This document shows, in pieces, positions 1-20,860 of a stretch of DNA of 64,000 nt. Under the pieces are notes generated by a model that had not been told where the DNA came from, did no database searches, and was given only the letters and a program-made list of their open reading frames with translations. The stretch's first letter is position 1; every line of letters begins with the position of its first letter. The DNA is from Escherichia coli (lineage in GTDB: Bacteria > Pseudomonadota > Gammaproteobacteria > Enterobacterales > Enterobacteriaceae): the NCBI RefSeq assembly GCF_030013205.1, contig NZ_CP122648.1; one strand, written 5' to 3'. The position numbers and the translations under genes are program-made.

Positions 1-63
1 AGTTCCGGCCAGCAGGTTATAAATTTTTACAGTACGTGATTGTTCACTCATTCTGAATGCCAT
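1..63 (-). CDS. tfa: Tail fibre assembly protein Tfa, N-terminal 21 codons only (gene runs off window start)
   Basis: Reverse complement of 1-63 translates [21 protein letters not shown], matching lambda-type Tfa N-terminus; ATG overlaps stf stop (TAATG). Confidence 0.7.
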   Translation of the reverse strand, partial: MAFRMSEQSRTVKIYNLLAGT

Positions 64-1724
64 TATGCAAGCCTCACAATATAATTAAATGCGATGTTTT
101 TAACGGTGTTTTCCGCGTTACCAGCAGCGTTAACGGTGATGGTGTGTCCATGTGAACCAATCGCAACAGAGTGCGTATGAGCGCCAATACCAACAGTGTG
201 TGCATGTGCCCCAGCACTTGTAGCGGTACCTGATACTGAGTGGGTATGTGCGCCAGAAGAAGGCACAGTTCCATTCCCCACCACCGTGCCACTTGATGCA
301 CCATCAAGCCAGTCGAAATTCATACCTCCACTGTTTGGTCTCCTTAATGGAACGGTATGTGTATGTGCGCCAGCACTATTTGCAGTACCAGATACATTGT
401 GGGTATGTGCACCAGTGTTATTCGTTGATTTAGTACCGTAATCAAACGACGATGTGGTTTTCGTACCCAAATCCGTACTGGATGCGCTGGCACTGTGGGT
501 GTGCGATTTAATGCCATCCTGTTCCTGAGACAATACGGCCCGACCACTGGCGGGTTTGCCCTTGATTGTCCAGCCGCGCATATCTGGAATAACACCAGAA
601 GGATAGGCAATAGCCAGTTTCGGATATGCTGCCTTATCAAACGTCTGCCCCTGCATGATTGCATAACCTGCAGGTGGCGTATCTGATGGCCACGGCAGCG
701 GAACACCTGGCGGAAACGCTTCAATATTTGCCGAGCCGTCAAATTTTACGCCGTTAATTGTCCTTGCCGTTTTCAGCTTTGTTGCTGTAGCAGCATTGCC
801 GGATAGTTCGCCAGAAAGACCACCGCTGAATGTCTGTTTCGCCGCCCATGTCTGAGCTTCGTCGATAATTGGCACACGTCTTGTCGTAATCGTGCGGCTT
901 CCCGGATTTCCTGAAATGCGAACCATAAAAAAGCGGTAATTCGCTTTACTTGCAGTGCTGCGCCATACATGCATTGAGCGCCCCGTACCGAAATCATCAC
1001 TCGGACCAACTGCGATGTTTATCAGGTTGCCATCAATGACGCCCCAGTCCATACCGTCGGGAATATTGGTCATGTTATCAAGCCGAACGGTTATCAGACT
1101 GCCCGGCACAAAATCGTAGGTCTGCCAGTCCAGGCTGGTGAGTTTTGCCACTGCGCCACCGATCCCCATATTCAGGGGCAACGAAAAGGAGTTATACACT
1201 TCTCGCCATTCGGTCCATGTGCTCCCGGCGTAGACGCGCTCAAAAGTGCGCCCCTGTGTGGTTTCTGATTTCCCTGTGGTTGTGTAACGCTGCCAGACAG
1301 ATACACCATCAAAACGCCTGATTACTTCCAGTATCCCAAGCAATGTCGCCCCAGCAGCGTCCAGCATCGGACCGTTTGTCGCCTTTCCTGTAACACTGTA
1401 AATACCGGGGTCGGTTAGAACATTCAAATCACCTTCGTAATAACGGCTCTCTGACTGATGACCGACTCTTAACCACGGTTCCCACTGCGGATTTGATGCA
1501 TCCCAGCTTGCCGCAAGGCAGCGAACGTACATATTCCCACGACGAGTGGTATAACGTTGCGTTCTTCCATAATTCCCGCCTTCGAGGATCTCAAGCGTCC
1601 CCTGAGCAAAGCCGCCTTCCTCTGGATAATTGCGTTCATATGAAGCTATAGCCGAGCTACTGTTACGCCATAAACCAAGATGCTCAGCGGCTCCAAGCGT
1701 ATTCAGGTCTATAGTCGTACTCAA
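63..1724 (-). CDS. Side tail fibre protein, lambda Stf-like C-terminal region
   Basis: 553-aa ORF; C-terminal half has [52 protein letters not shown], His-rich GAHTH/GAHAH boxes and ends NYIVRLA; followed by tfa. Confidence 0.8.
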
Positions 1725-2000
1725 AGGGCGGGTAGTTCAAGAAGCTGTTCCGGAGCGTTTGTTGATGATCCCGATCTGCATAAAAATATTCTTATTTGCT
1801 ATCCGTATGGTAACTATGAATATGACAATATTATCTATGTTGAAAAGAAAACTAATGCATTGGGCGTTGTTGTGACGTATGCACAGACTGCACGAGACGA
1901 TGCTGAATAAGATACTACAGAGATAGTCCACTTTTTTGTTTATTTGTCGGGATAAAAACAAATTACCCCGACTCACCATGTATTAATCTTCCGCTTTAAG

Positions 2001-2384
2001 TTAGTCTTGTAGCTGCGCTGTCCTGCTATGCAGCAAAGCGGCGTACTTTAATGCGTCCTGTGCTTTCTGGAATTTAAGTGCATAGTCAGTGGCGATTTTT
2101 TCCAGTTCAGCGATTCGGTTGTCTTTGGTTTCCAGCCAATCAAGTAGCGCCAATACTTCAGGATCCCCGACATCCAACACTGTTACGCGTGATTTTTCAT
2201 AATGTTCGTCGGCAAGAGTTCGACCAATTTTGAAATCTCCATCATCACCATAACCGGAGCAGCCATAAACAACCTGTGCTCCAGATATTCGCTGAATTGA
2301 CATTTCTTCGCCGCAAATAGGGCATTTTGGTACTGGTGCAGGTGAATAACGTTCACGTAATGCCTGATAGTTGATTTTGCTCAT
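2001..2384 (-). CDS. Hypothetical protein, CPxCG zinc-ribbon-like motif plus predicted C-terminal coiled coil
   Basis: 127-aa ORF with ATG start, same strand as stf; no recognisable family. Confidence 0.4.
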   Translation of the reverse strand: MSKINYQALRERYSPAPVPKCPICGEEMSIQRISGAQVVYGCSGYGDDGDFKIGRTLADEHYEKSRVTVLDVGDPEVLALLDWLETKDNRIAELEKIATDYALKFQKAQDALKYAALLHSRTAQLQD

Positions 2385-2447
2385 TAAGTCGCTCTTCTTG
2401 TTTATGTTCTGAGATGGAGATCAGGGCGAACTCGCCCTGACGTTGTG

Positions 2448-2876
2448 TTATTCAGGAAATAACGCCCTGATATTTCCGGCCATCTGACTGGTTATCTGTG
2501 CGGTTGGTACTGGCTGTGACAGGGGGCGTTCTGTCCTGGTTTGTGTCACTGATAACGCCTCATCGTCAGCCCATGCAGCCAGTCGGTAAGCCTCTGCCGG
2601 ATTCATTTTCAGAAGTGCCAGCCCGGCCAGAAAAGCCACGCGTTGGCCGCTTTTGCGGGCTTCCGGTGTAAGGCTGTCCAGCCAGGCGCATGCTTCGCTT
2701 TCGTTCTTGACGGCCGCAGGCTTCAGATAGAAACTTATCTGAGTAAGTCTGAATGTGTTCAGTTGCTGGATGCACTGGCTGAAAATCCCGATGAACGGCT
2801 GGCTGTCGAAATCCTTCTGTCGACCGGGGCGCGATGGGGCGAGGTAGCGGTACTGGAGCAGCGCCGTGTTCTTCAT
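2448..2876 (-). CDS. Hypothetical ORF, possibly an orphan 3' gene fragment; 5' part is antisense to integrase fragment
   Basis: 142-aa ORF; only the part below ~2700 lies outside the integrase fragment; no convincing RBS for internal starts. Confidence 0.2.
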   Translation of the reverse strand: MKNTALLQYRYLAPSRPGRQKDFDSQPFIGIFSQCIQQLNTFRLTQISFYLKPAAVKNESEACAWLDSLTPEARKSGQRVAFLAGLALLKMNPAEAYRLAAWADDEALSVTQTRTERPLSQPVPTAQITSQMAGNIRALFPE

Positions 2877-3221
2877 TGTCGAATCACTTTTTCAAAAACG
2901 AAGAACAGCAAAAACCGTACCGTTCCTATTTCTGAAAGCCTGTTTGAAAAGATCAAAAAACGGGGCGGGAAACTGGTGTTTCCGACGCTGGATTATCCAT
3001 TGGTTCGCGATGTCATCAAAACGGTCGCATCTGATGTTCCTGACGGCCAGGCTGTTCATGCGCTGCGCCACACCTTCGCCAGTCATTTCATGATGAACGG
3101 CGGCAATATTCTGACGCTCCAGAAAATTCTGGGGCACGCAAAGATTCAGACAACGATGATTTATGCCCATCTTGCGCCGGATTACTTGCAGGATGCGGTG
3201 AGATTTAATCCAATAGCTTGA
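2730..3221 (+). pseudogene. Tyrosine recombinase (P2 Int family), C-terminal catalytic domain only; N-terminal half absent
   Basis: Motifs LSTGARWGE, HALRHTFASHFM, LGHAKIQTTMIYAHL resemble P2 integrase C-terminal half; frames upstream of ~2700 show no integrase-like sequence. Confidence 0.65.
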
Positions 3222-3231
3222 AGGTAGGAAA

Positions 3232-3615
3232 ATGAAAGATATTGAACATTCAGGGGAAATGGAAAAGAAAAAACGGGAGTTTATTAAAAAACTGGAATCG
3301 ATAACGCCAAGAGAATTCTTCCGTTTTTTAAATGAAAAAAACGTCACTGTGGTTTGCCTTGGGTGCGGACTGAAAGATACCCAGATAACTGCCACTACAG
3401 GTAAGTTAAATCTCCAACAACTCCTGGATGGTGAAAAAGGGGAAGAGTTTATGACGTACTTCAGGCTTGAACCAGGTCACCCAGGTGATAGTGATGCGAA
3501 TTATTACTACAAATCTTTTTGTGAGAACTGCGGTTATATAACTATGCATGCAGTGACTCCGGTATTGAACTGGTTGGGATCGCAAAAAAACCAGGAAGGG
3601 TCAGGTGATGAATGA
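3232..3615 (+). CDS. Hypothetical protein with two CxxC pairs (zinc-ribbon-like), low-GC cargo gene
   Basis: 127-aa ORF, AGGTAGGA RBS 5-12 nt upstream of ATG, 10 nt after integrase stop; CLGC and CENC motifs. Confidence 0.55.
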   Translation: MKDIEHSGEMEKKKREFIKKLESITPREFFRFLNEKNVTVVCLGCGLKDTQITATTGKLNLQQLLDGEKGEEFMTYFRLEPGHPGDSDANYYYKSFCENCGYITMHAVTPVLNWLGSQKNQEGSGDE

Positions 3616-3907
3616 GTATACTTATATCACGGGTTTTTCCATTCCGTATCCAGGAGGAATTCAGGTGAGCAATCGCAGAAGTCAGGCAAGTCGTGATGAG
3701 TTCGCTCTTGATAGCCGTGTTGCACGAATGGAGTCTGATATCTCATACATCAAGAGAGATATTGAAGAGCTGAAGAGCGATCTCAAGGATGTGAGAGGCG
3801 ATATTGATAAGATACGCACAACAGATTTCAGGCTCATGTTTGGTGCGTTGATTACTACAGCCTTGGGGTTAGCTGGCTTAATGGCGAGAGGTTTTCACTG
3901 GATTTAA
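3605..3907 (+). CDS. Hypothetical small membrane protein: coiled coil plus C-terminal transmembrane anchor
   Basis: 99-100-aa ORF (GTG 3605 or ATG 3608) overlapping upstream stop (ATGAATGA); AGGAAGG RBS; hydrophobic C-terminus FGALITTALGLAGLMARGF. Confidence 0.55.
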   Translation: MMNEYTYITGFSIPYPGGIQVSNRRSQASRDEFALDSRVARMESDISYIKRDIEELKSDLKDVRGDIDKIRTTDFRLMFGALITTALGLAGLMARGFHWI

Positions 3908-4015
3908 GATCCACAAAGTGACCACATCTCTGTTATTTGTTGTGGTTGGCTGTGTTTTTGTGTGTCTGTAAGTCTTTGATAATTATCTAACTTATTGATT
4001 TTTGTTTGTGTTTAT

Positions 4016-4040
4016 GGCCGCTCTGCGGCCTTTTTTCTTT
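4016..4040 (+). terminator. Rho-independent terminator-like hairpin upstream of btuC
   Basis: GGCCGC-TCTG-CGGCC stem-loop followed by TTTTTTCTTTT. Confidence 0.45.
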
Positions 4041-4098
4041 TCACTGTCGAAGAGTCACCGTAAAATCAACGCCATGACACTTCAGCAGAACGGATACC

Positions 4099-5079
4099 AT
4101 GCTGACACTTGCCCGCCAACAACAGCGACAAAATATTCGCTGGTTATTATGCCTGTCAGTTTTGATGCTGCTGGCGCTTCTCTTAAGCCTTTGCGCCGGT
4201 GAACAATGGATCTCGCCAGGTGACTGGTTTTCTCCTCGAGGCGAACTGTTCGTCTGGCAGATTCGCCTGCCACGTACGCTGGCTGTATTGCTGGTTGGTG
4301 CGGCGTTGGCTATATCCGGCGCTGTAATGCAGGCGTTATTTGAAAATCCTCTGGCAGAACCTGGACTACTTGGCGTCTCTAATGGCGCAGGCGTGGGGCT
4401 TATCGCCGCGGTATTGCTTGGGCAAGGGCAACTCCCCAACTGGGCGCTGGGGCTGTGTGCGATTGCTGGCGCGCTTATCATCACTTTAATACTCTTACGT
4501 TTCGCCCGTCGTCATCTTTCGACCAGTCGGTTATTGCTGGCTGGCGTTGCATTAGGGATTATCTGTAGCGCACTAATGACGTGGGCTATCTACTTTTCCA
4601 CCTCTGTTGATTTACGTCAGCTGATGTACTGGATGATGGGCGGTTTTGGCGGCGTAGACTGGCGGCAAAGCTGGCTGATGCTGGCATTGATCCCCGTGTT
4701 GTTGTGGATCTGTTGTCAGTCCAGACCGATGAATATGTTAGCACTTGGCGAGATCTCGGCGCGGCAACTGGGTTTACCCCTGTGGTTCTGGCGCAATGTG
4801 CTGGTGGCAGCGACCGGCTGGATGGTTGGCGTCAGTGTGGCGTTGGCGGGTGCTATCGGCTTTATTGGTCTGGTGATCCCACATATTCTCCGGTTATGTG
4901 GTTTGACCGATCATCGCGTATTACTTCCCGGCTGCGCGCTGGCAGGGGCGAGCGCATTGCTGCTGGCCGATGTTGTAGCGCGCCTGGCATTAGCTGCTGC
5001 AGAGCTGCCTATTGGCGTGGTCACCGCAACGTTGGGTGCGCCGGTGTTTATCTGGTTATTGTTAAAAGCAGGACGTTAG
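4099..5079 (+). CDS. btuC: Vitamin B12 ABC transporter permease
   Basis: 326-aa ORF matching K-12 BtuC; btuCED order. Confidence 0.95.
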
Positions 5080-7230: not shown

Positions 7231-7944
7231 ATGAAGATTTTTTTGGAGAATCTTTATCATTCTGATTGCTATTTCCTGCCGATAAGAGATAACCAGCAAG
7301 ACCTTGTCGGCGTTGAGTTAATTACCCATTTCTCCAGTGAAGATGGTACGGTTCGTATCCCGACGAGTCGGGTTATAGCGCAACTTACCGAGGAGCAACA
7401 TTGGCAATTATTTTCAGAGCAGTTGGAATTACTAAAATCATGCCAACACTTTTTTATTCAACATAAACTCTTTGCCTGGCTTAATTTAACGCCACAAGTG
7501 GCTACTTTATTATTAGACAGGGATAATTACGCAGGCGAACTATTAAAATATCCGTTTATTGAACTGTTGATTAATGAGAATTACCCGCATCTCGATGAAG
7601 GAAAAGATAATCGCGATCTTTTTTCCTTATCGCAAATGTATCCCCTTGTGTTAGGTAATTTGGGCGCAGGCAATAGCACAATGAAAGCGGTTTTTGATGG
7701 TCTTTTCACCCGCGTCATGCTGGATAAAAGTTTTATTCAGCAACAAATCACGCATCGCTCCTTCGAACCGTTTATTCGTGCGATCCAGGCGCAAATTTCC
7801 CCATGTTGCAATTGCATCATCGCGGGGGGCATTGATACGCCAGAAATAATGGCACAGATTACCCCCTTTGATTTCCATGCTCTCCAGGGATGCCTGTGGC
7901 CTGCCGTTCCCATAAATCAGATAACGACGTTGGTTCAGCGATAA
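7231..7944 (+). CDS. ydiV: Anti-FlhD4C2 factor, degenerate EAL-like protein
   Basis: 237-aa ORF matching K-12 YdiV; synteny. Confidence 0.9.
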   Translation: MKIFLENLYHSDCYFLPIRDNQQDLVGVELITHFSSEDGTVRIPTSRVIAQLTEEQHWQLFSEQLELLKSCQHFFIQHKLFAWLNLTPQVATLLLDRDNYAGELLKYPFIELLINENYPHLDEGKDNRDLFSLSQMYPLVLGNLGAGNSTMKAVFDGLFTRVMLDKSFIQQQITHRSFEPFIRAIQAQISPCCNCIIAGGIDTPEIMAQITPFDFHALQGCLWPAVPINQITTLVQR

Positions 7945-7967
7945 CCCTCCTGTTTGCTGGTGTTTAA

Positions 7968-9443
<1,476 letters not shown>

Positions 9444-9446
9444 AGG

Positions 9447-9638
9447 CTACTTGGTCAACAGCAGCTTGCCAGCCTGAGTTTTACGGAGCAGATATTCTTG
9501 CCCGTCATGATCGATAATCAGTTTGCCATCCGGACCTAACAGTGTCTGGCTGGTAATTCGCCGAATGGGCTGTGGGGAAGCGGTCTTGTGATTGGCATCC
9601 GTTTCAGGCGTGAGTTTTCTGCTATCCGTATAACGCAT
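9447..9638 (-). CDS. ydiE: HemP-like small protein
   Basis: 63-aa protein from internal ATG of 72-aa ORF (MRYTDSRK...), matches K-12 YdiE. Confidence 0.8.
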
Positions 9639-9769
9639 AAAGATTAATAATAATTGATATAACAATGATTCTTATTATCAATATTATGGCGGGCCAGAGC
9701 AAGCAGTAATTTGTTGAGAAGACAACAAGTTGCGCAGAAATGCCCATTCCGTCAGGAATGGGCACGCAT

Positions 9770-10816
9770 TCAGAAACGGGTATCAACTGCAGAGGCGAGT
9801 TTTTCGACCAGGCGTTCGGTATCTTCCCAGCCCAGACACGGGTCGGTAATCGATTGACCGTAAGTGAGCGGCTGACCGCCGGCGATTTTTTGCGTTCCTT
9901 CGCGCAGGAAACTTTCCGCCATAATTCCAGCAATCGCCGTAGAGCCATTGCGGATTTGCTGACAAATATCCTCACAAACTTCTAACTGGCGACGGTGCTG
10001 CTTCTGGCAGTTACCGTGGCTGAAATCCACCACCAGATGTTCAGGTAAATCAAACTCGTGCAGCGTATCGCAGGCTGCGGCGATATCATCGGCATGATAA
10101 TTCGGTTTTTTGCCGCCACGCATAATAATGTGGCCATACGGGTTGCCGCTGGTCTGATAGATGGTCATCTGACCATTTTTGTCTGGCGAGAGGAACATAT
10201 GGCTGGCGCGGGCTGCGCGGATAGCATCCACGGCAATCCGCGTGTTGCCATCGGTACCATTTTTAAAACCTACCGGACAGGAGAGTGCCGAAGCCATTTC
10301 ACGGTGGATCTGACTTTCGGTAGTACGTGCGCCAATCGCACCCCAACTGATTAAATCAGCAATAAACTGACCGGTCACCATATCGAGGAACTCAGTCGCG
10401 GTAGGGACGCCCAGCTCATTTACCTGTAAAAGTAATTTGCGCGCCAGCTCCAGACCGTGATTTACCCGATAGCTGCCGTTTAAATCTGGATCGGAGATTA
10501 GCCCTTTCCAGCCGACAACAGTTCGTGGTTTTTCAAAATAGGTGCGCATTACGATTTCCAGCCGTGACTGGTACTGGTTGCGCAGCGACTGCAGACGGGT
10601 GGCGTACTCCATTGCAGCGGTGAGATCGTGGATCGAGCAGGGGCCAATAATGACCAACAGTCGCTTATCTTCACCATTCAGTATTTTTTCAATTCTGCGG
10701 CGGGAGTCGGTGACATGGGTGGCGACGCCAGGCGTTACGGGATACCGTAGCGCGAGTTCGGCGGGCGTTACCAGGCTCTCAATACGCGCAGTACGGAGTT
10801 CGTCAGTTCTGTTCAT
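9770..10816 (-). CDS. aroH: DAHP synthase, Trp-sensitive
   Basis: 348-aa ORF matching K-12 AroH. Confidence 0.95.
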   Translation of the reverse strand: MNRTDELRTARIESLVTPAELALRYPVTPGVATHVTDSRRRIEKILNGEDKRLLVIIGPCSIHDLTAAMEYATRLQSLRNQYQSRLEIVMRTYFEKPRTVVGWKGLISDPDLNGSYRVNHGLELARKLLLQVNELGVPTATEFLDMVTGQFIADLISWGAIGARTTESQIHREMASALSCPVGFKNGTDGNTRIAVDAIRAARASHMFLSPDKNGQMTIYQTSGNPYGHIIMRGGKKPNYHADDIAAACDTLHEFDLPEHLVVDFSHGNCQKQHRRQLEVCEDICQQIRNGSTAIAGIMAESFLREGTQKIAGGQPLTYGQSITDPCLGWEDTERLVEKLASAVDTRF

Positions 10817-10961
10817 TACAAGTCTCAGAAATTTGTTGCTTCTACGGCAGGACTACCGGGAAGTGATGCGCATCACGATAAACCAATCGCAGCTGATTTC
10901 AAGTGCGAGGTGTGTCACACCTCGCCGGGTGGTTAGCATGATAACAAAAAAACAAGCTAAT

Positions 10962-10979
10962 GCACTAGTTCTCTAGTAC
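10962..10979. promoter_or_regulatory. TrpR operator-like palindrome in aroH upstream region
   Basis: GCACTAGTTCTCTAGTAC, near-perfect inverted repeat of TrpR-box type upstream of aroH. Confidence 0.5.
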
Positions 10980-11806
10980 ATTCGACGGCTAAGGCCCATG
11001 ATATCGAGGATCTTGGTGGCAATCTCTTCTACCGAATAATTGGTACTGTTAATCCACGGGATCTGATTTTTACGGTACAAGGCTTCTACTTCCGCGACTT
11101 CCATCCTGCACTGACGAAGCGAGGCATAGCGACTGTTCTCCCGACGTTCTTCGCGAATCGCCGCCAGACGTTCCGGGTCGATAGTCAGGCCGAACAATTT
11201 ATGCTGAAGCGGTTTGAGCGACGCGGGTAGCACAAGATTATCCATATCGTCGGCAATAAAGGGGTAGTTTGCCGCGCGGATACCAAATTGCATTGCCAGA
11301 TACAGACTGGTGGGGGTTTTACCACAGCGAGAAACGCCGAGCAGGATCACCTGAGCCTGGTCCAGATTGCGTAACGAAATGCCATCATCGTGGGCGAGGG
11401 TGTAATCAATCGCAGCAATGCGCGCATCATATTTATTGAGATTATTAGGGTTAAGGCCATGGGTACGATGAGCAATCGGCGTTGGATCCAGTTTCATCTC
11501 TTGTTGTAGCGGGGCAACCAGCGCCTGAACGATATCCTGGCAAAAGCCTTCACTTTGCAAGATGATGGCGCGAATCTCCGGCAACACGATGGAGTAGAAG
11601 ACCAGCGGGCGCACACCTGTCTGGTGATAAATTGCGTCAATCTGATCCTTCACTGCCCGTGCACGGCTCTCATTTTCGACAAACGGCAGCGTAATGCTGC
11701 TGATAGTGACGGGAAATTGTGACATTACTGCGTGTCCTAATACCTCCGCAGTTATTGCCGTACCATCAGAAATATAAAAAACGTGGCGATCAACAGCATT
11801 ATCCAT
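10973..11806 (-). CDS. ppsR: PEP synthetase regulatory protein (bifunctional kinase/phosphotransferase)
   Basis: 277-aa ORF matching K-12 PpsR/YdiA; divergent from ppsA. Confidence 0.93.
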
Positions 11807-12138
11807 TTTGTTCTTCCCGTGATGCAGACATAATTCTATGAAAGCATAAATTAAAAACGCACAGAAGCGTAGAACGTTATGTCTGGTTTATAAAATGAAC
11901 CTTCAATTTTATTTTTTATGAAAACAGTATTTCATTTTTACGGTTTCGTTTATACCGATGGTTTATGTGGAAATTGTCGAAGAGAGCAGATTTGCGCAAC
12001 GCTGGGATCAGTCTTAAAAAGTAAAAAAATATATTTGCTTGAACGATTCACCGTTTTTTTCATCCGGTTAAATATGCAAAGATAAATGCGCAGAAATGTG
12101 TTTCTCAAACCGTTCATTTATCACAAAAGGATTGTTCG

Positions 12139-14517
12139 ATGTCCAACAATGGCTCGTCACCGCTGGTGCTTTGGTATAACCAACTCGGCATGAATGATGT
12201 AGACAGGGTTGGGGGCAAAAATGCCTCCCTGGGTGAAATGATTACTAACCTTTCCGGAATGGGTGTTTCCGTTCCGAATGGTTTCGCCACAACCGCCGAC
12301 GCGTTTAACCAGTTTCTGGACCAAAGCGGCGTAAACCAGCGCATTTATGAACTGCTGGATAAAACGGATATTGACGATGTTACCCAGCTTGCGAAAGCGG
12401 GCGCGCAAATCCGCCAGTGGATTATCGACACTCCCTTCCAGCCTGAGCTGGAAAACGCCATCCGCGAAGCCTATGCACAGCTTTCCGCCGATGACGAAAA
12501 CGCCTCGTTTGCGGTGCGTTCCTCCGCTACTGCAGAAGATATGCCGGACGCTTCTTTTGCCGGTCAGCAGGAAACTTTCCTCAACGTTCAGGGTTTTGAC
12601 GCCGTTCTCGTGGCAGTGAAACATGTATTTGCTTCTCTGTTTAACGATCGCGCCATCTCTTATCGTATGCACCAGGGTTACGATCACCGTGGCGTGGCGC
12701 TCTCCGCCGGTGTTCAGCGGATGGTGCGCTCCGACCTCGCATCTTCTGGCGTGATGTTCTCCATTGATACCGAATCCGGCTTTGACCAGGTGGTGTTTAT
12801 CACTTCCGCATGGGGCCTTGGTGAAATGGTCGTGCAGGGCGCGGTTAACCCGGATGAGTTTTACGTGCATAAACCGACACTGGCGGCGAATCGCCCGGCT
12901 ATCGTGCGCCGCACCATGGGGTCGAAAAAAATCCGCATGGTTTACGCGCCGACCCAGGAGCACGGCAAGCAGGTTAAAATCGAAGACGTACCGCAGGAAC
13001 AGCGTGACATCTTCTCGCTGACCAACGAAGAAGTGCAGGAACTGGCAAAACAGGCCGTACAAATTGAGAAACACTACGGTCGCCCAATGGATATTGAGTG
13101 GGCGAAAGATGGCCACACCGGCAAACTGTTCATTGTGCAGGCGCGTCCGGAAACCGTGCGCTCACGCGGTCAGGTCATGGAGCGTTATACGCTGCATTCA
13201 CAGGGTAAGATTATCGCCGAAGGCCGTGCTATCGGTCATCGCATCGGCGCGGGTCCGGTGAAAGTCATCCATGACATCAGCGAAATGAACCGCATCGAAC
13301 CTGGCGACGTGCTGGTTACTGACATGACCGACCCGGACTGGGAACCGATCATGAAGAAAGCATCTGCCATCGTCACCAACCGTGGGGGGCGTACCTGTCA
13401 CGCGGCGATCATCGCTCGTGAACTCGGCATTCCGGCGGTAGTGGGCTGTGGTGATGCAACAGAACGGATGAAAGACGGTGAGAACGTCACTGTTTCTTGT
13501 GCCGAAGGTGATACCGGTTATGTCTATGCGGAGTTGCTGGAATTTAGCGTGAAAAGCTCCAGCGTAGAAACGATGCCGGATCTGCCGTTGAAAGTAATGA
13601 TGAACGTCGGTAACCCGGACCGTGCTTTCGACTTCGCCTGCCTGCCGAACGAAGGCGTGGGCCTTGCACGTCTGGAATTTATCATCAACCGTATGATTGG
13701 CGTCCACCCACGCGCACTGCTTGAGTTTGACGATCAGGAACCGCAGTTGCAAAACGAAATCCGCGAGATGATGAAAGGTTTTGATTCTCCGCGTGAATTT
13801 TACGTTGGTCGTCTGACTGAAGGGATCGCGACGCTGGGTGCCGCGTTTTATCCGAAGCGCGTCATTGTCCGTCTCTCTGATTTTAAATCGAACGAATATG
13901 CCAACCTGGTCGGTGGTGAGCGTTACGAGCCAGATGAAGAGAACCCGATGCTCGGCTTCCGTGGCGCGGGCCGCTATGTTTCCGACAGCTTCCGCGACTG
14001 CTTCGCGCTGGAGTGTGAAGCAGTGAAACGTGTGCGCAACGATATGGGGCTGACCAACGTTGAGATCATGATCCCGTTCGTGCGTACCGTAGATCAGGCG
14101 AAAGCGGTGGTTGACGAATTGGCGCGTCAGGGGCTGAAACGTGGTGAGAACGGGCTGAAAATCATCATGATGTGTGAAATTCCGTCCAACGCCTTGCTGG
14201 CAGAGCAGTTCCTCGAATATTTCGACGGCTTCTCAATTGGCTCAAACGACATGACACAGCTGGCGCTCGGTCTGGACCGTGACTCTGGCGTGGTGTCTGA
14301 ACTGTTCGATGAGCGCAACGATGCGGTGAAAGCACTGCTGTCGATGGCGATTCGTGCCGCGAAGAAACAGGGCAAATATGTCGGGATTTGCGGTCAGGGT
14401 CCATCCGACCACGAAGACTTTGCTGCATGGTTGATGGAAGAGGGGATCGATAGCCTGTCTCTGAACCCGGACACCGTGGTGCAAACCTGGTTAAGCCTAG
14501 CTGAACTGAAGAAATAA
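12139..14517 (+). CDS. ppsA: Phosphoenolpyruvate synthase
   Basis: 792-aa ORF matching K-12 PpsA. Confidence 0.97.
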
Positions 14518-14525
14518 AATAAATA

Positions 14526-14548
14526 CCCGGCGGCGTTTTGTCGCCGGG
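14526..14548. terminator. Hairpin between convergent ppsA and fadK (possible bidirectional terminator)
   Basis: CCCGGCG-GCGTTTTGT-CGCCGGG followed by TTTAT. Confidence 0.5.
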
Positions 14549-14573
14549 TTTATGTGATCCCCGAAGATGAAAC

Positions 14574-16274
14574 TTATTCAATCTCTTCACAGACATCCTG
14601 AGTTAATCGCAGCATAATATCTTTCCTTAACAAAAACTTTTGTATTTTACCTGAGGCAGTGCGAGGTAGTTTTTCGATTACCACGATATGTTCAGGATAT
14701 TTATATTTCGCGACCCGTTTACGGCTAAAAAAAGTCACCACGTCTTCCAGCGATAATGAATGATGCGGGGCTTTCAGCACGACATAAGCGCATGAGCGTT
14801 CACCTAAACGTTCATCGGGCATCGCAACCACACAGGCATCGTGAATTTTAGGATGCTGCAATAAAATATCTTCTACTTCACGGCTGCTAATATTTTCGCC
14901 ACCGCGGACAATAATATCTTTCTTGCGCCCGGTTATTTTTATATAGCCAGCTTCATCCATGCGGCAGAGATCGCCGCTGTAATACCAGCCTTCTTCATCC
15001 AGCGCACGGGCGGTTAATTCAGGTTCATCAAAATACCCCATAAACACATTGGGGCCACGCGAGGCTTCTTCACCTTCGCAACCTGGCGGTAAGGTCTTGC
15101 GTGCGTCATCGACCACTTTAATCTCAACACCTGCGGCAGCGTAACCATCGGTGTGCATAAAGCGCGACAAAGGATCGTCGAGATTCACCACTGCGTGCGG
15201 CGAACTTTCTGTGGAACCATAAACACTTAATAATTTAATGCCGCGCTGCTGGCATTCACGCGCCACTTTTTTGGGGATTGTGGTCCCGCCGCAAAGAAAG
15301 AAGCGCAGCGCTGAAAGGTCAGCGGGTTGTTTCTCCAGTAAATTCAAAAGATCATAGACAAACGGCGTTGCGCCGAGCATACAGGTGCAACGCTGCTGCT
15401 CAAGCAACGCGAGACACGCATCAGGAGTGAAAATATCTAACAACACGCTGCGAGCGCCAATTAAGAATGGTGCCGTTACGCCATGCAGAAAGCCCGTTGC
15501 ATGACCAAGTGGCGCAGGCATCATAAAGACATCCTGCCAGGTCAGATTCAACCGCGCGCAATAAGCCCGCTCACTGGCGAGAATATTGTTATGCGTTAGC
15601 ATCACGCCCTTTGGCAGACCCTCGGTTCCGGAGGTAAACAGCACCGCGGCTAATTCATCGCCGTGGACCGTTATCGCCGTGGTCAGAGGAGTATTGTCGG
15701 CGATAATCTGACTTAATGAGAGGGAAGAGGTGGCGGGAGCCAGTTTGTCCACGCCGACAATTTGTTGTAGTTGTAGAAGCTGATTTTGCAGCGGCAGGAT
15801 TAAATCTACCGGACGCGTTTGTTTAAACAACGTCGGTGCAAAGAACATTTTTGCCTGACACTTATTGAGTACCCATACCAGTTCTGCTTCCCGCCAGGAA
15901 GGCAACAGCGGTACGGAAACCGCACCGATTTTCAGGCAGGCAAGATAGATAACGGTAAATTCACACCAGCCAGGCAGTTGAAATGCGATGCGATCGCCTG
16001 ATTCAATACCCTTCGTCAACATCCAGTTTGCCAGACAGCTCGCGGCGTGATCGAGCGCGCTATAGGTGTACGATGCTCCATGATTATCGACCACGGCAAT
16101 TTTGTCTGGCATCGCACGAGCGGTCTGCTGCCAGTAATCGGCCAGCGAAGCATCGCCCCATAGCCCTTGCTGACGATACGCCGCACGACGTTGTTCGTTA
16201 AACGTTAATGTCACTTTCATTTTGAACTCTCGAGACAGAACATCAGGCCCGAGATGCGGGCCTGTGGGATGCAT
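14574..16274 (-). CDS. fadK: Short-chain acyl-CoA synthetase (anaerobic)
   Basis: 566-aa ORF, AMP-binding family; alternative start at 16220 (MKVTLTF) would give 548 aa. Confidence 0.9.
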   Translation of the reverse strand: MHPTGPHLGPDVLSREFKMKVTLTFNEQRRAAYRQQGLWGDASLADYWQQTARAMPDKIAVVDNHGASYTYSALDHAASCLANWMLTKGIESGDRIAFQLPGWCEFTVIYLACLKIGAVSVPLLPSWREAELVWVLNKCQAKMFFAPTLFKQTRPVDLILPLQNQLLQLQQIVGVDKLAPATSSLSLSQIIADNTPLTTAITVHGDELAAVLFTSGTEGLPKGVMLTHNNILASERAYCARLNLTWQDVFMMPAPLGHATGFLHGVTAPFLIGARSVLLDIFTPDACLALLEQQRCTCMLGATPFVYDLLNLLEKQPADLSALRFFLCGGTTIPKKVARECQQRGIKLLSVYGSTESSPHAVVNLDDPLSRFMHTDGYAAAGVEIKVVDDARKTLPPGCEGEEASRGPNVFMGYFDEPELTARALDEEGWYYSGDLCRMDEAGYIKITGRKKDIIVRGGENISSREVEDILLQHPKIHDACVVAMPDERLGERSCAYVVLKAPHHSLSLEDVVTFFSRKRVAKYKYPEHIVVIEKLPRTASGKIQKFLLRKDIMLRLTQDVCEEIE

Positions 16275-17911: not shown

Positions 17912-18850
17912 TTAGCTGCTCAACTGGCTAATCAGGGCAGGGACGACTTTGTAGATATCGCCCACCAGACCGTAGTCGGCATAGTTGAAGATTGGCGCAT
18001 TTTTATCTTTATTGATGGCGACAATCACTTTTGCGCCGTTGCCGCCAACCATATGCTGGATCTGCCCGGAAATCCCCAGCGTCAGGTAGAGATCGGATTT
18101 CAGCAACACGCCGGAGACACCGATATAACGTTCACGCTCCATCCAGTTCTCGCCTTCGGCAATTGGACGTGAACAGCCGACTTCAGCATTCAGCACCGCC
18201 GCCAGTTCGTGGACCATTTTCAGGTCATCCTGCGCCGCCAGACCACGACCGACGCCAACCACACGTTTTGCTTTGCTCAGGTCCACGCTGCTTGCGGCTT
18301 TCGCACGGCGTTCGCGACAGAGAATTTCATGACGCGGAGCAACATAAGGTACCGTTTCTGTCGGGCACTGATGAGCGGTATCACTGGTGCACGGTTCCTG
18401 AACACCGGGTGCAAGGGTAATGATCGCCAGCGGGCTGTTGATCTTTTCCTGTGCGAACGCTAACCCGCCATACATCCGGTGTTCGGCGCAAATGTGACCA
18501 TCGACAATATCCACCGCAGTGGCATCGTTCACCAGCGCCGCATTCAGTTGCACACTTAACCGTGCTGCCAGAGCTTTACCACGTTTCGTCGCGGCCAGCA
18601 GCAACATAGAAGGGTGTTTATCTTTCAGCAGGGCAGCAATGCTTTCGGCGTAATTTTCAGTACGTTGCAGCGCATCATTTTGCTCAAGAACATAAATACA
18701 TTTTGGACCATAAGGCATAACTGCCTGCGCCTGGTCGGTATTTTGTACAATGGCATACACCTGTTGGCCCCATTGCTGCGCGCCGCCAAACAGTTCAGCA
18801 TAACGTTCAGGATTATCGCTAAAGACCCAGACGCTGTTTAATTGACTCAT
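17912..18850 (-). CDS. ydiR: Electron transfer flavoprotein alpha subunit (FixB-like)
   Basis: 312-aa ORF matching K-12 YdiR. Confidence 0.92.
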   Translation of the reverse strand: MSQLNSVWVFSDNPERYAELFGGAQQWGQQVYAIVQNTDQAQAVMPYGPKCIYVLEQNDALQRTENYAESIAALLKDKHPSMLLLAATKRGKALAARLSVQLNAALVNDATAVDIVDGHICAEHRMYGGLAFAQEKINSPLAIITLAPGVQEPCTSDTAHQCPTETVPYVAPRHEILCRERRAKAASSVDLSKAKRVVGVGRGLAAQDDLKMVHELAAVLNAEVGCSRPIAEGENWMERERYIGVSGVLLKSDLYLTLGISGQIQHMVGGNGAKVIVAINKDKNAPIFNYADYGLVGDIYKVVPALISQLSS

Positions 18851-18869
18851 CGTTTCTTCTCCGTAGGCT

Positions 18870-19634
18870 TCAGTTCAGGGCTTTCTTCAGATGTTCCGCC
18901 AGCTCGGCAATGGCCTCCGGCGAATCGTTATCGAGAATGATGTGCTTACGTTCTGTTTGCGGCGGTACGCGAATGCCGGTCAGTTCAGCAAGCGGCGCGC
19001 TCTGGCTCCAGCCAATGTCACTTGCCTGCCACTGATTTACCGGTTTTTTACCCGCGCCGAGAATGGCTTTCATCGAAGGAATGCGTGGCATGTTAATATC
19101 GGAGGTGACGCAGAGCACGGCTGGAACAGAGAGCTCAATAACTTCAACATCATCTTCAAGCGTGCGTTCAATCACCAGTGTATTGCCCTGACGCTGAATA
19201 GCACTCACTGCATTAATCACCGGAAGTTGCAGAATTTCTCCGACCAGCAAGCCAACCTGCTGGGCATAAAGGTCGCCGGAACCTTCACCAAAGATCAGTA
19301 AATCGAAGCCGATTTTTTCAACTGCTGCCGCCAGCGCCTTTGCGGTATCGAGAGGCAGTGCATGTTCAAGTTGCGCATCCTGCACCAAATACAGGCTATG
19401 CGGCCCGCGGGATAGCACGTCTTTACGCACTTTCGAGTTCTGCAACAATGAGCCGCCAATGGTCAGCGCGGCTATCTCATCGTCATCTGTTGCAATCTGG
19501 CTTGCAGCTTCAATGGCATTGAGATCGAACTGGCTGATTTTGGCGTCGGCATTGTCGAAATTCAGGGTATATTCTGGAGTGACAACAATGTCCTGTTCTT
19601 CAGGCACCAGCTTAAAGCAGGTTATTATTTTCAT
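18870..19634 (-). CDS. ydiQ: Electron transfer flavoprotein beta subunit (FixA-like)
   Basis: 254-aa protein from internal ATG (MKIITCF) of 287-aa ORF. Confidence 0.9.
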   Translation of the reverse strand: MKIITCFKLVPEEQDIVVTPEYTLNFDNADAKISQFDLNAIEAASQIATDDDEIAALTIGGSLLQNSKVRKDVLSRGPHSLYLVQDAQLEHALPLDTAKALAAAVEKIGFDLLIFGEGSGDLYAQQVGLLVGEILQLPVINAVSAIQRQGNTLVIERTLEDDVEVIELSVPAVLCVTSDINMPRIPSMKAILGAGKKPVNQWQASDIGWSQSAPLAELTGIRVPPQTERKHIILDNDSPEAIAELAEHLKKALN

Positions 19635-19948
19635 GATTTCTCCTGTGAGTCGCATACGGAACCATCTCCGATGGAAGGTAAAAATGGCCTGAAAATAGTG
19701 TGCGATAGCAGGGCGGGGGGTTCGACGGAGCAAGCTGTTTTCCTTGCCAACAATCTTGCAAAAAAATGCGATCGCTAAAACAAAAGTGCAATTTGCGGCA
19801 ATATAGTTATTCCATGACCGTACAATCTTGCATTCAGTGTAAATAATCTTGTTTAGCTCTCGCTAAACGCGGTTGTATAACCGCAATACACGCCGTATTT
19901 TATCCGGCATATATTGTTTTTGCTTGCTCATGGAATAGGGAGGTTGTC

Positions 19949-20860
19949 ATGTATCAACGCTGTTTTGATAACGCCAGCGAAACGCTGTTTGTTGCCGGTA
20001 AAACGCCACGGCTTTCACGTTTTGCATTTAGCGATGATCCAAAATGGGAGTCCGGACATCACGTTCATGACAATGAAACCGAGTTGATTTACGTCAAGAA
20101 AGGGGTAGCAAGGTTTACCATCGATTCTTCGTTATATGTCGCGCACGCCGATGACATTGTGGTGATAGAACGTGGCAGGCTGCATGCGGTGGCCTCTGAC
20201 GTTAACGATCCGGCAACGACGTGTACCTGTGCGCTGTACGGCTTTCAGTTTCAGGGGGCTGAGGAAAATCAGCTACTGCAACCGCATTCTTGCCCGGTAA
20301 TTGCCGCAGGGCAGGGAAAAGAAGTCATTAAAACCTTATTTAATGAGCTAAGTGTGATTTTGCCGCAAAGTAAAAATAGCCAAACATCTTCGTTATGGGA
20401 CGCCTTTGCCTATACGTTAGCAATTCTTTACTATGAAAACTTTAAAAATGCTTATCGTTCGGAGCAGGGATATATTAAAAAAGATGTTCTGATAAAAGAT
20501 ATTCTTTTCTATCTGAATAATAACTATCGCGAAAAAATCACTTTAGAGCAGTTATCGAAAAAGTTTCGTGCCAGCGTCAGTTATATTTGCCATGAATTTA
20601 CCAAAGAGTATCGTATTTCCCCTATTAACTATGTTATTCAACGGCGTATGACGGAAGCGAAATGGTCACTCACTAATACTGAATTATCACAGGCAGAGAT
20701 CTCCTGGCGTGTGGGTTATGAAAATGTCGATCACTTTGCCAAACTGTTTTTGCGCCATGTCGGCTGTTCGCCCAGCGATTACCGCAGGCAATTTAAAAAC
20801 TGTTTTGCGGAACAAGAAATCTTATCTGAATTTCCTCAACCGGTAAGTCTTGCCGGATAA
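19949..20860 (+). CDS. ydiP: AraC-family transcriptional regulator
   Basis: 303-aa ORF with C-terminal AraC-type HTH. Confidence 0.9.
   Translation: MYQRCFDNASETLFVAGKTPRLSRFAFSDDPKWESGHHVHDNETELIYVKKGVARFTIDSSLYVAHADDIVVIERGRLHAVASDVNDPATTCTCALYGFQFQGAEENQLLQPHSCPVIAAGQGKEVIKTLFNELSVILPQSKNSQTSSLWDAFAYTLAILYYENFKNAYRSEQGYIKKDVLIKDILFYLNNNYREKITLEQLSKKFRASVSYICHEFTKEYRISPINYVIQRRMTEAKWSLTNTELSQAEISWRVGYENVDHFAKLFLRHVGCSPSDYRRQFKNCFAEQEILSEFPQPVSLAG

Follow-up and report, generated by a model that had tools for sequence, protein, structure and literature searches.

The DNA that precedes btuC at positions 1-4015 of the window (the whole 64-kb stretch of Escherichia coli DNA analyzed in this study) almost certainly belongs to a defective P2-like prophage (P88/Xuanwuvirus type) and forms its int-proximal end, at attR; this prophage is inserted in the ihfA terminator and has been worn down by deletions. 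The btuC gene (4099-5079, plus strand), the first core gene past the prophage, is followed by btuE, btuD, nlpC and ydiV in the same order as in K-12, as given by the ORF list and the RefSeq annotation. On its 5' side lie a truncated tail-fiber gene, three small accessory genes, the C-terminal half of an integrase gene and two further small genes.

Insertion site at the ihfA terminator

An earlier note had claimed a break of synteny 5' of btuC and had proposed that a prophage was inserted at, or replaced, the ihfA-btuC junction. The break is real: in the alignment to K-12, homology of the ihfA-btuC spacer starts exactly at window 4016. The note was also right that the first 4 kb hold no IhfA-like ORF. 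A tblastn search with K-12 IhfA (E≤10) gave no match in the whole 64-kb window, and a hidden or fragmented ihfA within the window was thereby ruled out. The gene lies beyond the window start, as the note had suggested might be checked. The positions of ihfA and attL, both upstream of the window, were taken from public genomes with no difference from the window over 25 kb. In ETEC1748 and K_EC180, ihfA is intact and ends 12,989 bp and 12,988 bp, respectively, before window position 1.

The att core is an exact 25-bp direct repeat, GGCCGCTCTGCGGCCTTTTTTCTTT, which consists of the intrinsic terminator hairpin and T-run of ihfA. The attR copy is located at 4016-4040 (plus strand). In genomes with an exact match to the window, the other copy is found 16,985 bp upstream, directly after ihfA (at 7031 in L001, the locus of a window-identical genome), and the repeat extends no further on either side. 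The same repeat brackets the related prophages of isolate F344 (39,730 bp) and of O111:H8 (31,961 bp). Insertion, marked by this duplication, therefore holds, whereas replacement does not, since ihfA is intact. ihfA retains its own terminator at attL, and a second copy of the terminator, followed by the unchanged spacer, precedes btuC at attR.

The phage would have entered by Int-mediated site-specific recombination between its attP and the 25-bp sequence. The attR phage arm (3908-4015) contains two matches to the IHF consensus, at 3969-3981 and 3988-4000. These are two of the five matches to WATCAANNNNTTR in the 64-kb window, where 3.05 were expected, and IHF bound to the two predicted sites beside the core may help integration. 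A promoter-like site (4038-4066) and a terminator-like hairpin are still present at attR, and expression of btuC would probably be essentially unaffected by the insertion.

The earlier note had also pointed to a drop in GC content. The GC content of 1-4015 is indeed lower than that of the remainder of the window (47.4% vs 49.7%), but the difference is marginal, about one standard deviation of 4-kb core windows (2.2%), and is too small at 4 kb to be diagnostic of foreign origin. Low GC is confined to the accessory segments 1736-2447 and 3232-3907 (42%) and to the att arm (32%), and the tail-fiber, parR and int sequences have 50-55%.

Decay by internal deletions

The prophage of 39,730 bp in F344 corresponds to 16,985 bp in the window version. 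Three deletions explain the whole difference. The largest, of 13,085 bp, is marked by the microhomology GGTAG and the next, of 7,130 bp, by the microhomology TATC; the third lies at an IS remnant before the window start and accounts for a net 2,530 bp. In the blastn comparison, the two versions are collinear at 99.6-100% identity, and the three gap sizes sum exactly to the length difference. The earlier supposition that the element was later eroded by internal deletion is thus borne out, with two of the deletions lying in the window. F344, which carries its own IS66 insertion, serves here as a near-complete reference and not as an established active phage.

At the window start, the first 21 codons of the tail-fiber assembly gene, the equivalent of P2 gpG, occupy 1-63 on the minus strand. 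The remainder lies upstream; in identical genomes RefSeq annotates a tail fiber assembly protein at L001 19446-20063, which corresponds to window -554 to 63. The truncated tail-fiber gene, the equivalent of P2 gpH, follows at 63-1735 (minus strand) and retains the C-terminal ~557 of 885 codons. Its ORF (63-1724, minus strand) matches the C-terminal part of the phrog_295 profile (E 5e-144), and RefSeq lists it as a pseudogene with a missing N-terminus. The remnant is collinear with 18371-20105 of the F344 locus (L006), within a gene of 2,658 nt, and its N-terminus was lost in the first deletion. The junction of this deletion is located at 1731-1735, where the 5-bp GGTAG is shared. It was defined by a three-way alignment in which the window was set against the two F344 flanks, and by the blastn coordinates 20105 and 33186. 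The lost segment of 13,085 bp comprised the 5' part of H, the genes I, J, W, V, S and R, the lysis genes, X, L, M, N, O, P and Q, and the 5' part of an accessory gene. The 3' fragment of this gene remains at 1731-1910 (plus strand) and matches positions 30-87 of the 90 of phrog_1416 (E 2e-35). RefSeq gives it as partial with the N-terminus missing, and its longer version in F344 adjoins the portal gene.

Two further accessory genes follow on the minus strand, an ead/Ea22-like gene of 127 aa (2001-2384; RefSeq name, phrog_368 with E 5e-27) and a parR-like partition/stability gene (2448-2762; phrog_2515 partition protein, E 1e-52, from residue 7). The first ~7 codons of the latter were swapped for antisense int sequence by the second deletion, as seen in the junction alignment. 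In ETEC1701 and F344, parR is intact (312 nt) and adjoins parM. The second junction is located at the 4-bp TATC at 2736-2739, and the sequence lost there amounts to 4,611 bp when ETEC1701 is the reference and to 7,130 bp when F344 is, according to a three-way alignment, blastn coordinates and the annotation of both strains. The start of parR, parM, the replication gene A, early genes, the cox/C region and the N-terminal 151 codons of int were removed. What is left of the P2-family tyrosine integrase gene is the C-terminal 159 of 310 codons at 2740-3221 (plus strand; phrog_1 integrase, E 9e-42). The catalytic domain is present, with its ARWGE, HALRH, GH and IYAH motifs, and the N-terminal half, which binds the arm and core sites, is missing; the full-length gene has 933 nt in ETEC1701 and F344. 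The distance of ~1 kb between tail-fiber and integrase genes, which had been noticed earlier, is 1,004 bp from 1735 to this integrase-derived segment.

Relative to F344, 22.7 kb is missing, including the portal, terminase, capsid, lysis, baseplate, sheath, tube, gpA and C/cox genes and the N-terminal half of int. The set of integrase, excision, immunity, replication, head, tail and lysis genes of an intact prophage is incomplete. A complete, intact prophage between ihfA and btuC, the counter-case named by the earlier note, is not what lies there: the intervening prophage is defective. From its gene content, the remnant would be unable to excise or to form particles unaided. Since both att sites look intact, mobilization in trans is conceivable, and a related superinfecting phage supplying Int and Cox could mobilize the remnant.

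Other states of decay were found in pig ETEC strains, a less-decayed state in ETEC1701 and a differently decayed state in ETEC4068. Junction 1 is common to ETEC1701, the O139:H1 strains and the window, and junction 2 is absent from ETEC1701 and O139:H1. The states differ by only about 0.1% in sequence. Both the order of the deletions and their mechanism were read from these end states, and the deletions probably arose through illegitimate, microhomology-mediated recombination.

P2-like identity of the prophage

The RefSeq annotation of the window-identical genomes and relatives shows a P2-like gene order (hok, ogr, D, T, U, G, H ... parR, int). The late and tail genes of P2 type in the window-identical genomes are ogr/Delta, gpD, the tape measure gene, gpU, the tail-fiber assembly gene G and the tail-fiber gene H. 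The F344 and O111:H8 relatives have the full gene set, including the P2-family capsid and GPO scaffold genes. In the parR/ead region, the part of the window covered by the comparison with phage DNA records, identity is 95.7% over 726 bp (2014-2739) with P884B11 of Xuanwuvirus, a genus of Peduoviridae according to the taxonomy lookup, and 93.4% with P88. The element thus combines P2-type late genes, nucleotide similarity to P2-like phages, a P2-family integrase at the att site and a flanking repeat. Lambdoid structural, regulatory and integration genes were not found; the ead/Ea22-like gene and the phrog_1416 fragment are the only lambdoid-like parts.

The full-length Int of F344 shows 48% identity to the Int proteins of P2 and Wphi over 309 of 310 residues. 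Among the phage records of the collection, protein identity to this integrase nowhere exceeded 56%, so the Int specific for the ihfA terminator and the cassette between int and attR are seen here only in prophages.

The F344 homologues of window 1731-2762 sit between Q (L006 31257-32303) and parM/A (L006 34219-38095). The interval between gpA and gpQ is an accessory hotspot of P2, in which a partition system is present in about one in four P2-like phages (Rousset et al. 2022, PMC9122126). Both anchor genes of the hotspot, A and Q, are deleted in the window.

The cassette between int and attR

Two small genes occupy the slot between int and attR, and both ORFs are intact in the window. Gene 1 (3232-3615, plus strand; phrog_4293, E 4.5e-16) encodes 127 aa with four cysteines (CxxC...CxxC), which are invariant in an alignment of 16 homologues. 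Gene 2 (3605-3907, plus strand), which overlaps gene 1 by 11 nt, encodes 100 aa with a coiled coil and a C-terminal hydrophobic segment; its size and position equal those of SPN3UB gp25. The two products can be read as a four-cysteine, zinc-ribbon-like protein and a coiled-coil protein with a predicted C-terminal membrane segment.

All 15 homologues of the cassette are annotated as hypothetical, and its PHROGs matches are to families of unknown function only. The Pfam search of the cassette gave no domain below E 0.001, its NCBIfam search yielded no meaningful match, and gene 1 had no significant match in Pfam, PADLOC or NCBIfam. Gene 2 showed only weak coiled-coil matches (XhlA, i-E 0.005) and no PADLOC match; among the PADLOC-DB v2 defense models, no family matched any of seven window proteins at E≤0.01. 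The AlphaFold2 model of gene 1 had a pLDDT of 64.5, and a Foldseek search of the PDB with it gave no fold match, only generic zinc-ribbon proteins with a best E of 0.67.

Prophages sharing this Int carry at least three alternative cassettes in the slot. The two genes of the pair stay together in a lambdoid-type phage of Salmonella, following int in Serratia and, in an Aeromonas P2-like prophage, in the gap between repressor and int. The repressor-int position has been reported as a site of defense systems in K139-like phages (PMC9122126). It may be, although we consider it rather unlikely, that the cassette is an uncharacterized phage-exclusion/defense module expressed in lysogeny and the int-attR slot a further accessory hotspot of P2-like prophages.

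The HXS operon and hok

Upstream of the window, near attL, lie hok and hxsDBCA (hxsD, hxsB, hxsC and hxsA in one operon). By RefSeq annotation only, the operon is present in K_EC180, ETEC1748, ETEC1701, ETEC4068 and F344. HXS has been shown by experiment to be an anti-phage system; it is mostly chromosomal, with about 23% in prophages (PMC13128918). We found hxs-like DNA in 151 E. coli genomes, 45 of which have the allele of this prophage, adjoining ogr in 43. A conflict with the published, mostly chromosomal distribution was considered and rejected, since 45 of 151 roughly fits the published share in prophages.

Alternative explanations

Since copies of prophage genes recur in E. coli genomes, and pieces of our query were matched at 1 to 9 sites in each genome, the juxtaposition of tail-fiber and integrase genes might be an assembly artefact produced by mis-joining, a concern that the earlier note had raised. 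Window 1-4300 is, however, 100% identical in seven complete Korean and Belgian genomes, each sequenced independently, and six of these are identical over 1-25000. ETEC1701 and O139:H1 have junction 1 without junction 2, as real nested deletions would, and both junctions lie at short microhomologies with no long repeats. The identity of the seven genomes excludes the artefact for all practical purposes. It is hardly more credible that at least two independent elements in tandem, such as a P2-like remnant, a lambdoid remnant and a separate integrative island with its own integrase, make up a patchwork. The ead/Ea22-like gene and the phrog_1416 fragment do resemble lambdoid genes (76% DNA identity to 434, 2B8 and ES18), and the partition gene bears a "plasmid" name in RefSeq. 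F344, however, has all these genes within one P2-like prophage, between the portal gene Q and the replication gene A, at the published accessory hotspot. The whole element has just one pair of flanking att cores, and collinearity with F344 is complete save for the three deletions. The "prophage-like mosaic" of the earlier note is therefore a prophage, but a single P2-like one and not a mosaic.

There is another possible interpretation, which is compatible with a decayed P2-like prophage and does not replace it. The remnant may have been domesticated, with the HXS operon, hok and the int-attR cassette benefiting the host while the rest decays. We regard this as possible but doubtful. It would agree with the anti-phage activity of HXS, with the persistence of intact hxsDBCA and hok in every decay state examined and with the intact cassette ORFs. 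On the other hand, ETEC4068 has lost int together with the cassette, which is thus dispensable, and the promoter normally driving int and the cassette (the C/Pc region) is deleted in the window. The decay states lie within about 0.1% divergence, too little time for selection to be visible.

Significance and comparison with known systems

The ihfA-btuC attachment site is already known, published and common for P2-like prophages. The junction is occupied in about 5.7% of complete E. coli genomes; about 307 E. coli genomes have an interrupted junction and 298 have this int, which adjoins btuC in E2348/69, O104:H4 and O157:H7 FRIK2533, for example. As a common, published site holding a defective prophage, the locus is of little importance except for correct annotation. 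In about 300 complete E. coli genomes, the host genes past attR begin with btuC, which invites errors in prophage boundaries. Small uncharacterized cassettes beside int are cheap candidates for defense screens. With the parent, less-decayed and differently decayed states at about 99.9% identity, the decay of a prophage can be followed at single-base resolution within one pig ETEC lineage.

The closest published case is PP_SE11-4 of strain SE11, a P2-like prophage of 35.8 kb "between btuC and ihfA" with a 25-nt duplication (Oshima et al. 2008, PMC2608844). By this description it shares the site and the repeat length with the element studied here, but it is full-sized, whereas the present element was reduced to 17.0 kb by three deletions and carries IS66. 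P88 and P884B11 share 93-96% DNA identity in the parR-ead region and the P2-like layout, with parMR between A and Q in the relatives of the window; unlike these phages, the window-type Int and the int-attR cassette were found only in prophages.

P2 itself has the late genes ogr, D, T, U, G and H, a tyrosine integrase adjoining att, and the gpA-gpQ accessory hotspot. An IHF site lies beside the core of P2 attP, and predicted consensus matches likewise lie beside the core here. P2 differs in its attachment site and accessory genes, and the present element is defective; moreover, in the relatives of the window the tail block from the sheath to U is on the strand opposite to H and G. Cryptic or defective prophages of E. 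coli, such as those of K-12, have lost essential genes through deletions and IS insertions and kept some accessory genes, and the present element, an integrated phage, resembles them in this respect. In contrast to these, its parent and intermediate states are available at about 99.9% identity, and each deletion can be mapped to the base.

Gene content upstream of btuC and the position of ihfA

Features were assigned from the ORF list, family searches and the RefSeq annotation of identical genomes. Positions 1-63 (minus strand) hold the start of a tail-fibre assembly gene, 21 codons of which fall inside the window (RefSeq annotation); a tail-fibre gene without its N-terminus follows (63-1735, minus strand; phrog_295, E 5e-144). 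After it lie a 3' fragment from a small gene whose function is unknown (1731-1910; phrog_1416), an ead/Ea22-like gene (2001-2384, minus strand) and a parR-like partition gene (2448-2762, minus strand; phrog_2515, E 1e-52). A tyrosine integrase is represented by its C-terminal 159 codons (2740-3221; phrog_1, E 9e-42), in whose translation the catalytic motifs ARWGE, HALRH, GH and IYAH are readable. Two small overlapping genes (3232-3615 and 3605-3907), hereafter the int-attR cassette, come next, and the ORF list continues with btuC (4099-5079), btuE, btuD, nlpC and ydiV in the K-12 order. The earlier note had described tail-fibre and integrase fragments about 1 kb apart and no ihfA-like ORF before btuC. 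Both points were borne out, and a tblastn search of the whole 64-kb window with K-12 IhfA gave no match. The drop in GC content that it described does exist (47.4% against 49.7% in the rest), but it is weak and uninformative, since 4-kb core windows themselves vary with a standard deviation of 2.2%; a clear deficit is confined to the accessory segments and the att arm.

Window 1-4300 has 100% identical counterparts in seven complete genomes of pig E. coli, one Korean (K_EC180) and six from Belgian ETEC strains; these six also agree fully with the window over 1-25000. In K_EC180 and ETEC1748, the upstream order is pheS, pheT, an intact ihfA, hok/gef, ogr, hxsDBCA, IS66, a gpD fragment, a transposase remnant, a truncated tape-measure gene, gpU, an acetyltransferase gene and the tail-fibre assembly gene in which the window begins. 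The end of ihfA is separated from window position 1 by 12,989 bp in ETEC1748. The element is inserted beside an intact ihfA, and the suggestion that it might have replaced this gene does not hold. As a separate observation, ydiV/rflP is an intact 237-codon ORF at 7231-7944. The K_EC180 copy is annotated as frameshifted, with an indel at window position ~7828, and it is at this indel that K_EC180 first departs from the window; the Belgian ETEC genomes agree with the window at this gene.

Insertion point and att core

The 100-bp ihfA-btuC spacer of K-12 holds the ihfA terminator. Window position 4016 is exactly where homology starts, both to K-12 and to 5,425 of 5,426 complete E. coli genomes. 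This position is also the first base of a 25-bp att core, GGCCGCTCTGCGGCCTTTTTTCTTT (4016-4040), whose second copy lies 16,985 bp upstream, directly after ihfA; the repeat is limited to these 25 bp at both ends. The duplicated core and the resumption of homology at 4016 place the insertion of a prophage at the ihfA-btuC junction, as had been proposed. The core consists of the terminator hairpin GGCCGC-TCT-GCGGCC and its T-run. Since the insertion duplicates the core, ihfA retains its terminator at attL, the prophage end at ihfA, and the second copy precedes btuC at attR. At 4038-4066 lies a promoter-like site, the putative btuC promoter; it is left unchanged because it begins within the final three bases of the core.

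The 64-kb window has five matches to the IHF consensus, against 3.05 expected in all, and two of them lie in the phage arm to the left of the core (108 bp, 32% GC), at 3969-3981 and 3988-4000, both less than 50 bp from the core. In P2-type attP sites, an IHF site lies beside the core. It is worth mentioning that the att site of this phage is the terminator of ihfA itself and that its integration is probably IHF-dependent, which is probably a coincidence.

A single P2-like prophage reduced by deletions

The E. coli isolate F344 (NZ_OY754421) carries a 39,730-bp P2-like prophage between the same two 25-bp cores. Its head, lysis, baseplate and tail gene sets are full, and it also has parMR, replication gene A, early genes, a gene for an HTH repressor, an int of 310 codons and, ahead of attR, the two small genes seen in the window. 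A 31,961-bp relative occupies the same site in an O111:H8 strain. The F344 counterparts of the ead/Ea22-like gene, the phrog_1416 gene and parR lie between the portal gene Q and parM/A; in a paper on P2 hotspots (PMC9122126), the Q-to-A interval is described as an accessory hotspot of P2-like phages, about a quarter of which carry a partition system. At the DNA level, this segment and its counterparts in Xuanwuvirus P884B11 and phage P88 are 93-96% identical; Xuanwuvirus is a genus of Peduoviridae. The full-length Int is 48% identical to the Int of P2 and Wphi; none above 56% identity was present in the phage records searched. The earlier description of the region as a prophage-like mosaic needs correction: the element is one P2-like prophage, collinear with that of F344.

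Comparison of the K_EC180 element with F344 by blastn gave collinear blocks of 99.6-100% identity and three gaps. At the first (window 1731-1735), GGTAG is common to both parental flanks and 13,085 bp are gone: the 5' parts of the tail-fibre and phrog_1416 genes and, between them, the baseplate, lysis, head, terminase and portal genes. At the second (window 2736-2739), the flanks have TATC in common. This deletion took the first parR codons and the N-terminal 151 codons of int, and amounts to 7,130 bp by comparison with F344 and to 4,611 bp by comparison with ETEC1701, in which the first junction is present while parM, gene A and a full-length int are kept. The third, upstream of the window, has a 416-bp transposase remnant in place of 2,946 bp holding the sheath, tube, E and E' genes and the start of T. 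The net losses (13,085 + 7,130 + 2,530 = 22,745 bp) account for the full difference between the two elements (39,730 - 16,985). These facts support the interpretation as an eroded prophage, with erosion by internal deletion, and the synteny break itself is confirmed. The short microhomologies at the junctions suggest that the deletions arose by illegitimate recombination. Decay took another path in ETEC4068, where int, both small genes and part of the tail-fibre genes are missing, and an additional IS1 is present in some O139:H1 and ETEC strains.

An IS66-family element (ISCro1) upstream of the window splits the gpD region both in K_EC180-type genomes (11871-14789 of the K_EC180 locus) and in F344 (7702-10621), 221 bp apart in prophage DNA otherwise 99.9% identical. 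This offset suggests an independent insertion or a local move.

In the remnant, Int is reduced to its catalytic half, and cox, the C gene, the replication gene and the head genes are absent. To judge from this gene content, it would be unable to excise or to produce particles by itself. Both att sites seem undamaged and might therefore, in principle, be used in trans by a related phage.

Accessory genes at the two ends

Both cassette genes gave no significant match in Pfam, NCBIfam or PADLOC. Gene 1 has four invariant cysteines (CxxC...CxxC) over 16 homologues; its AlphaFold2 model, of modest confidence (pLDDT 64.5), had no significant fold match in the PDB. Gene 2 encodes a coiled coil and a C-terminal hydrophobic segment. 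The pair is kept together in Salmonella phage SPN3UB (gp24/gp25; L007 3453-4122), after int in a Serratia marcescens prophage (L013 5001-5700) and between the repressor gene and int in an Aeromonas hydrophila P2-like prophage (L012 5001-5703). This zinc-ribbon-like and coiled-coil/membrane pair travels as a unit among temperate phages of different genera; P2-like prophages have it before or after int, and a lambdoid-type phage has it in an accessory region.

Prophages with the same integrase carry at least three alternative cassettes here: the 384+303-nt pair of the window, a single 396-nt gene in O111:H8, O127:H6 and O104:H4, and a 501-nt gene with a DUF1640 gene in O157:H7 FRIK2533. The int-attR interval therefore looks like an accessory slot, one that the available text of the P2 hotspot paper (PMC9122126) does not mention. 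The cassette may have a role in phage exclusion; it has been lost from ETEC4068.

Near attL, ogr and gpD of this prophage are separated by an hxsDBCA operon (8163-11560 of the K_EC180 locus, about 8.4-11.8 kb before window position 1). HXS is an anti-phage system that blocks DNA entry, published in 2026 (PMC13128918). Hxs-like DNA occurs in 151 E. coli genomes and this allele (>=99% identity) in 45, directly beside ogr in 43 of them. A PIN-domain gene occupies the ogr-D slot in O111:H8, so that this slot also varies. Between attL and ogr, every prophage version examined has a hok/gef-family toxin gene (7319-7459 of the K_EC180 locus), which may help to stabilise the remnant.

Occurrence and known relatives

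A 401-bp probe of the K-12 junction was contiguous in 5,118 of 5,425 genomes; the junction is therefore interrupted in about 307 (5.7%). The integrase gene is present in 298 genomes, and adjoins btuC in E2348/69, O104:H4 and O157:H7 FRIK2533. In a survey of P2-like viruses published in 2026 (PMC13100340), the BtuC permease appears as one of the putative auxiliary metabolic genes encoded by phages. In about 300 complete E. coli genomes, btuC is the host gene that directly follows attR of a P2-like prophage, so this listing may be a prophage-boundary artefact.

The situation is, overall, an ordinary and previously known one. The exact window sequence is already annotated in RefSeq, and the SE11 genome paper of 2008 listed PP_SE11-4, a 35.8-kb P2-like prophage 'between btuC and ihfA' with a 25-nt duplication (PMC2608844), so that both the site and the kind of element were already known. 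PP_SE11-4 and the element of the window have in common their P2-like nature, the ihfA-btuC site and the 25-nt length of the repeat.
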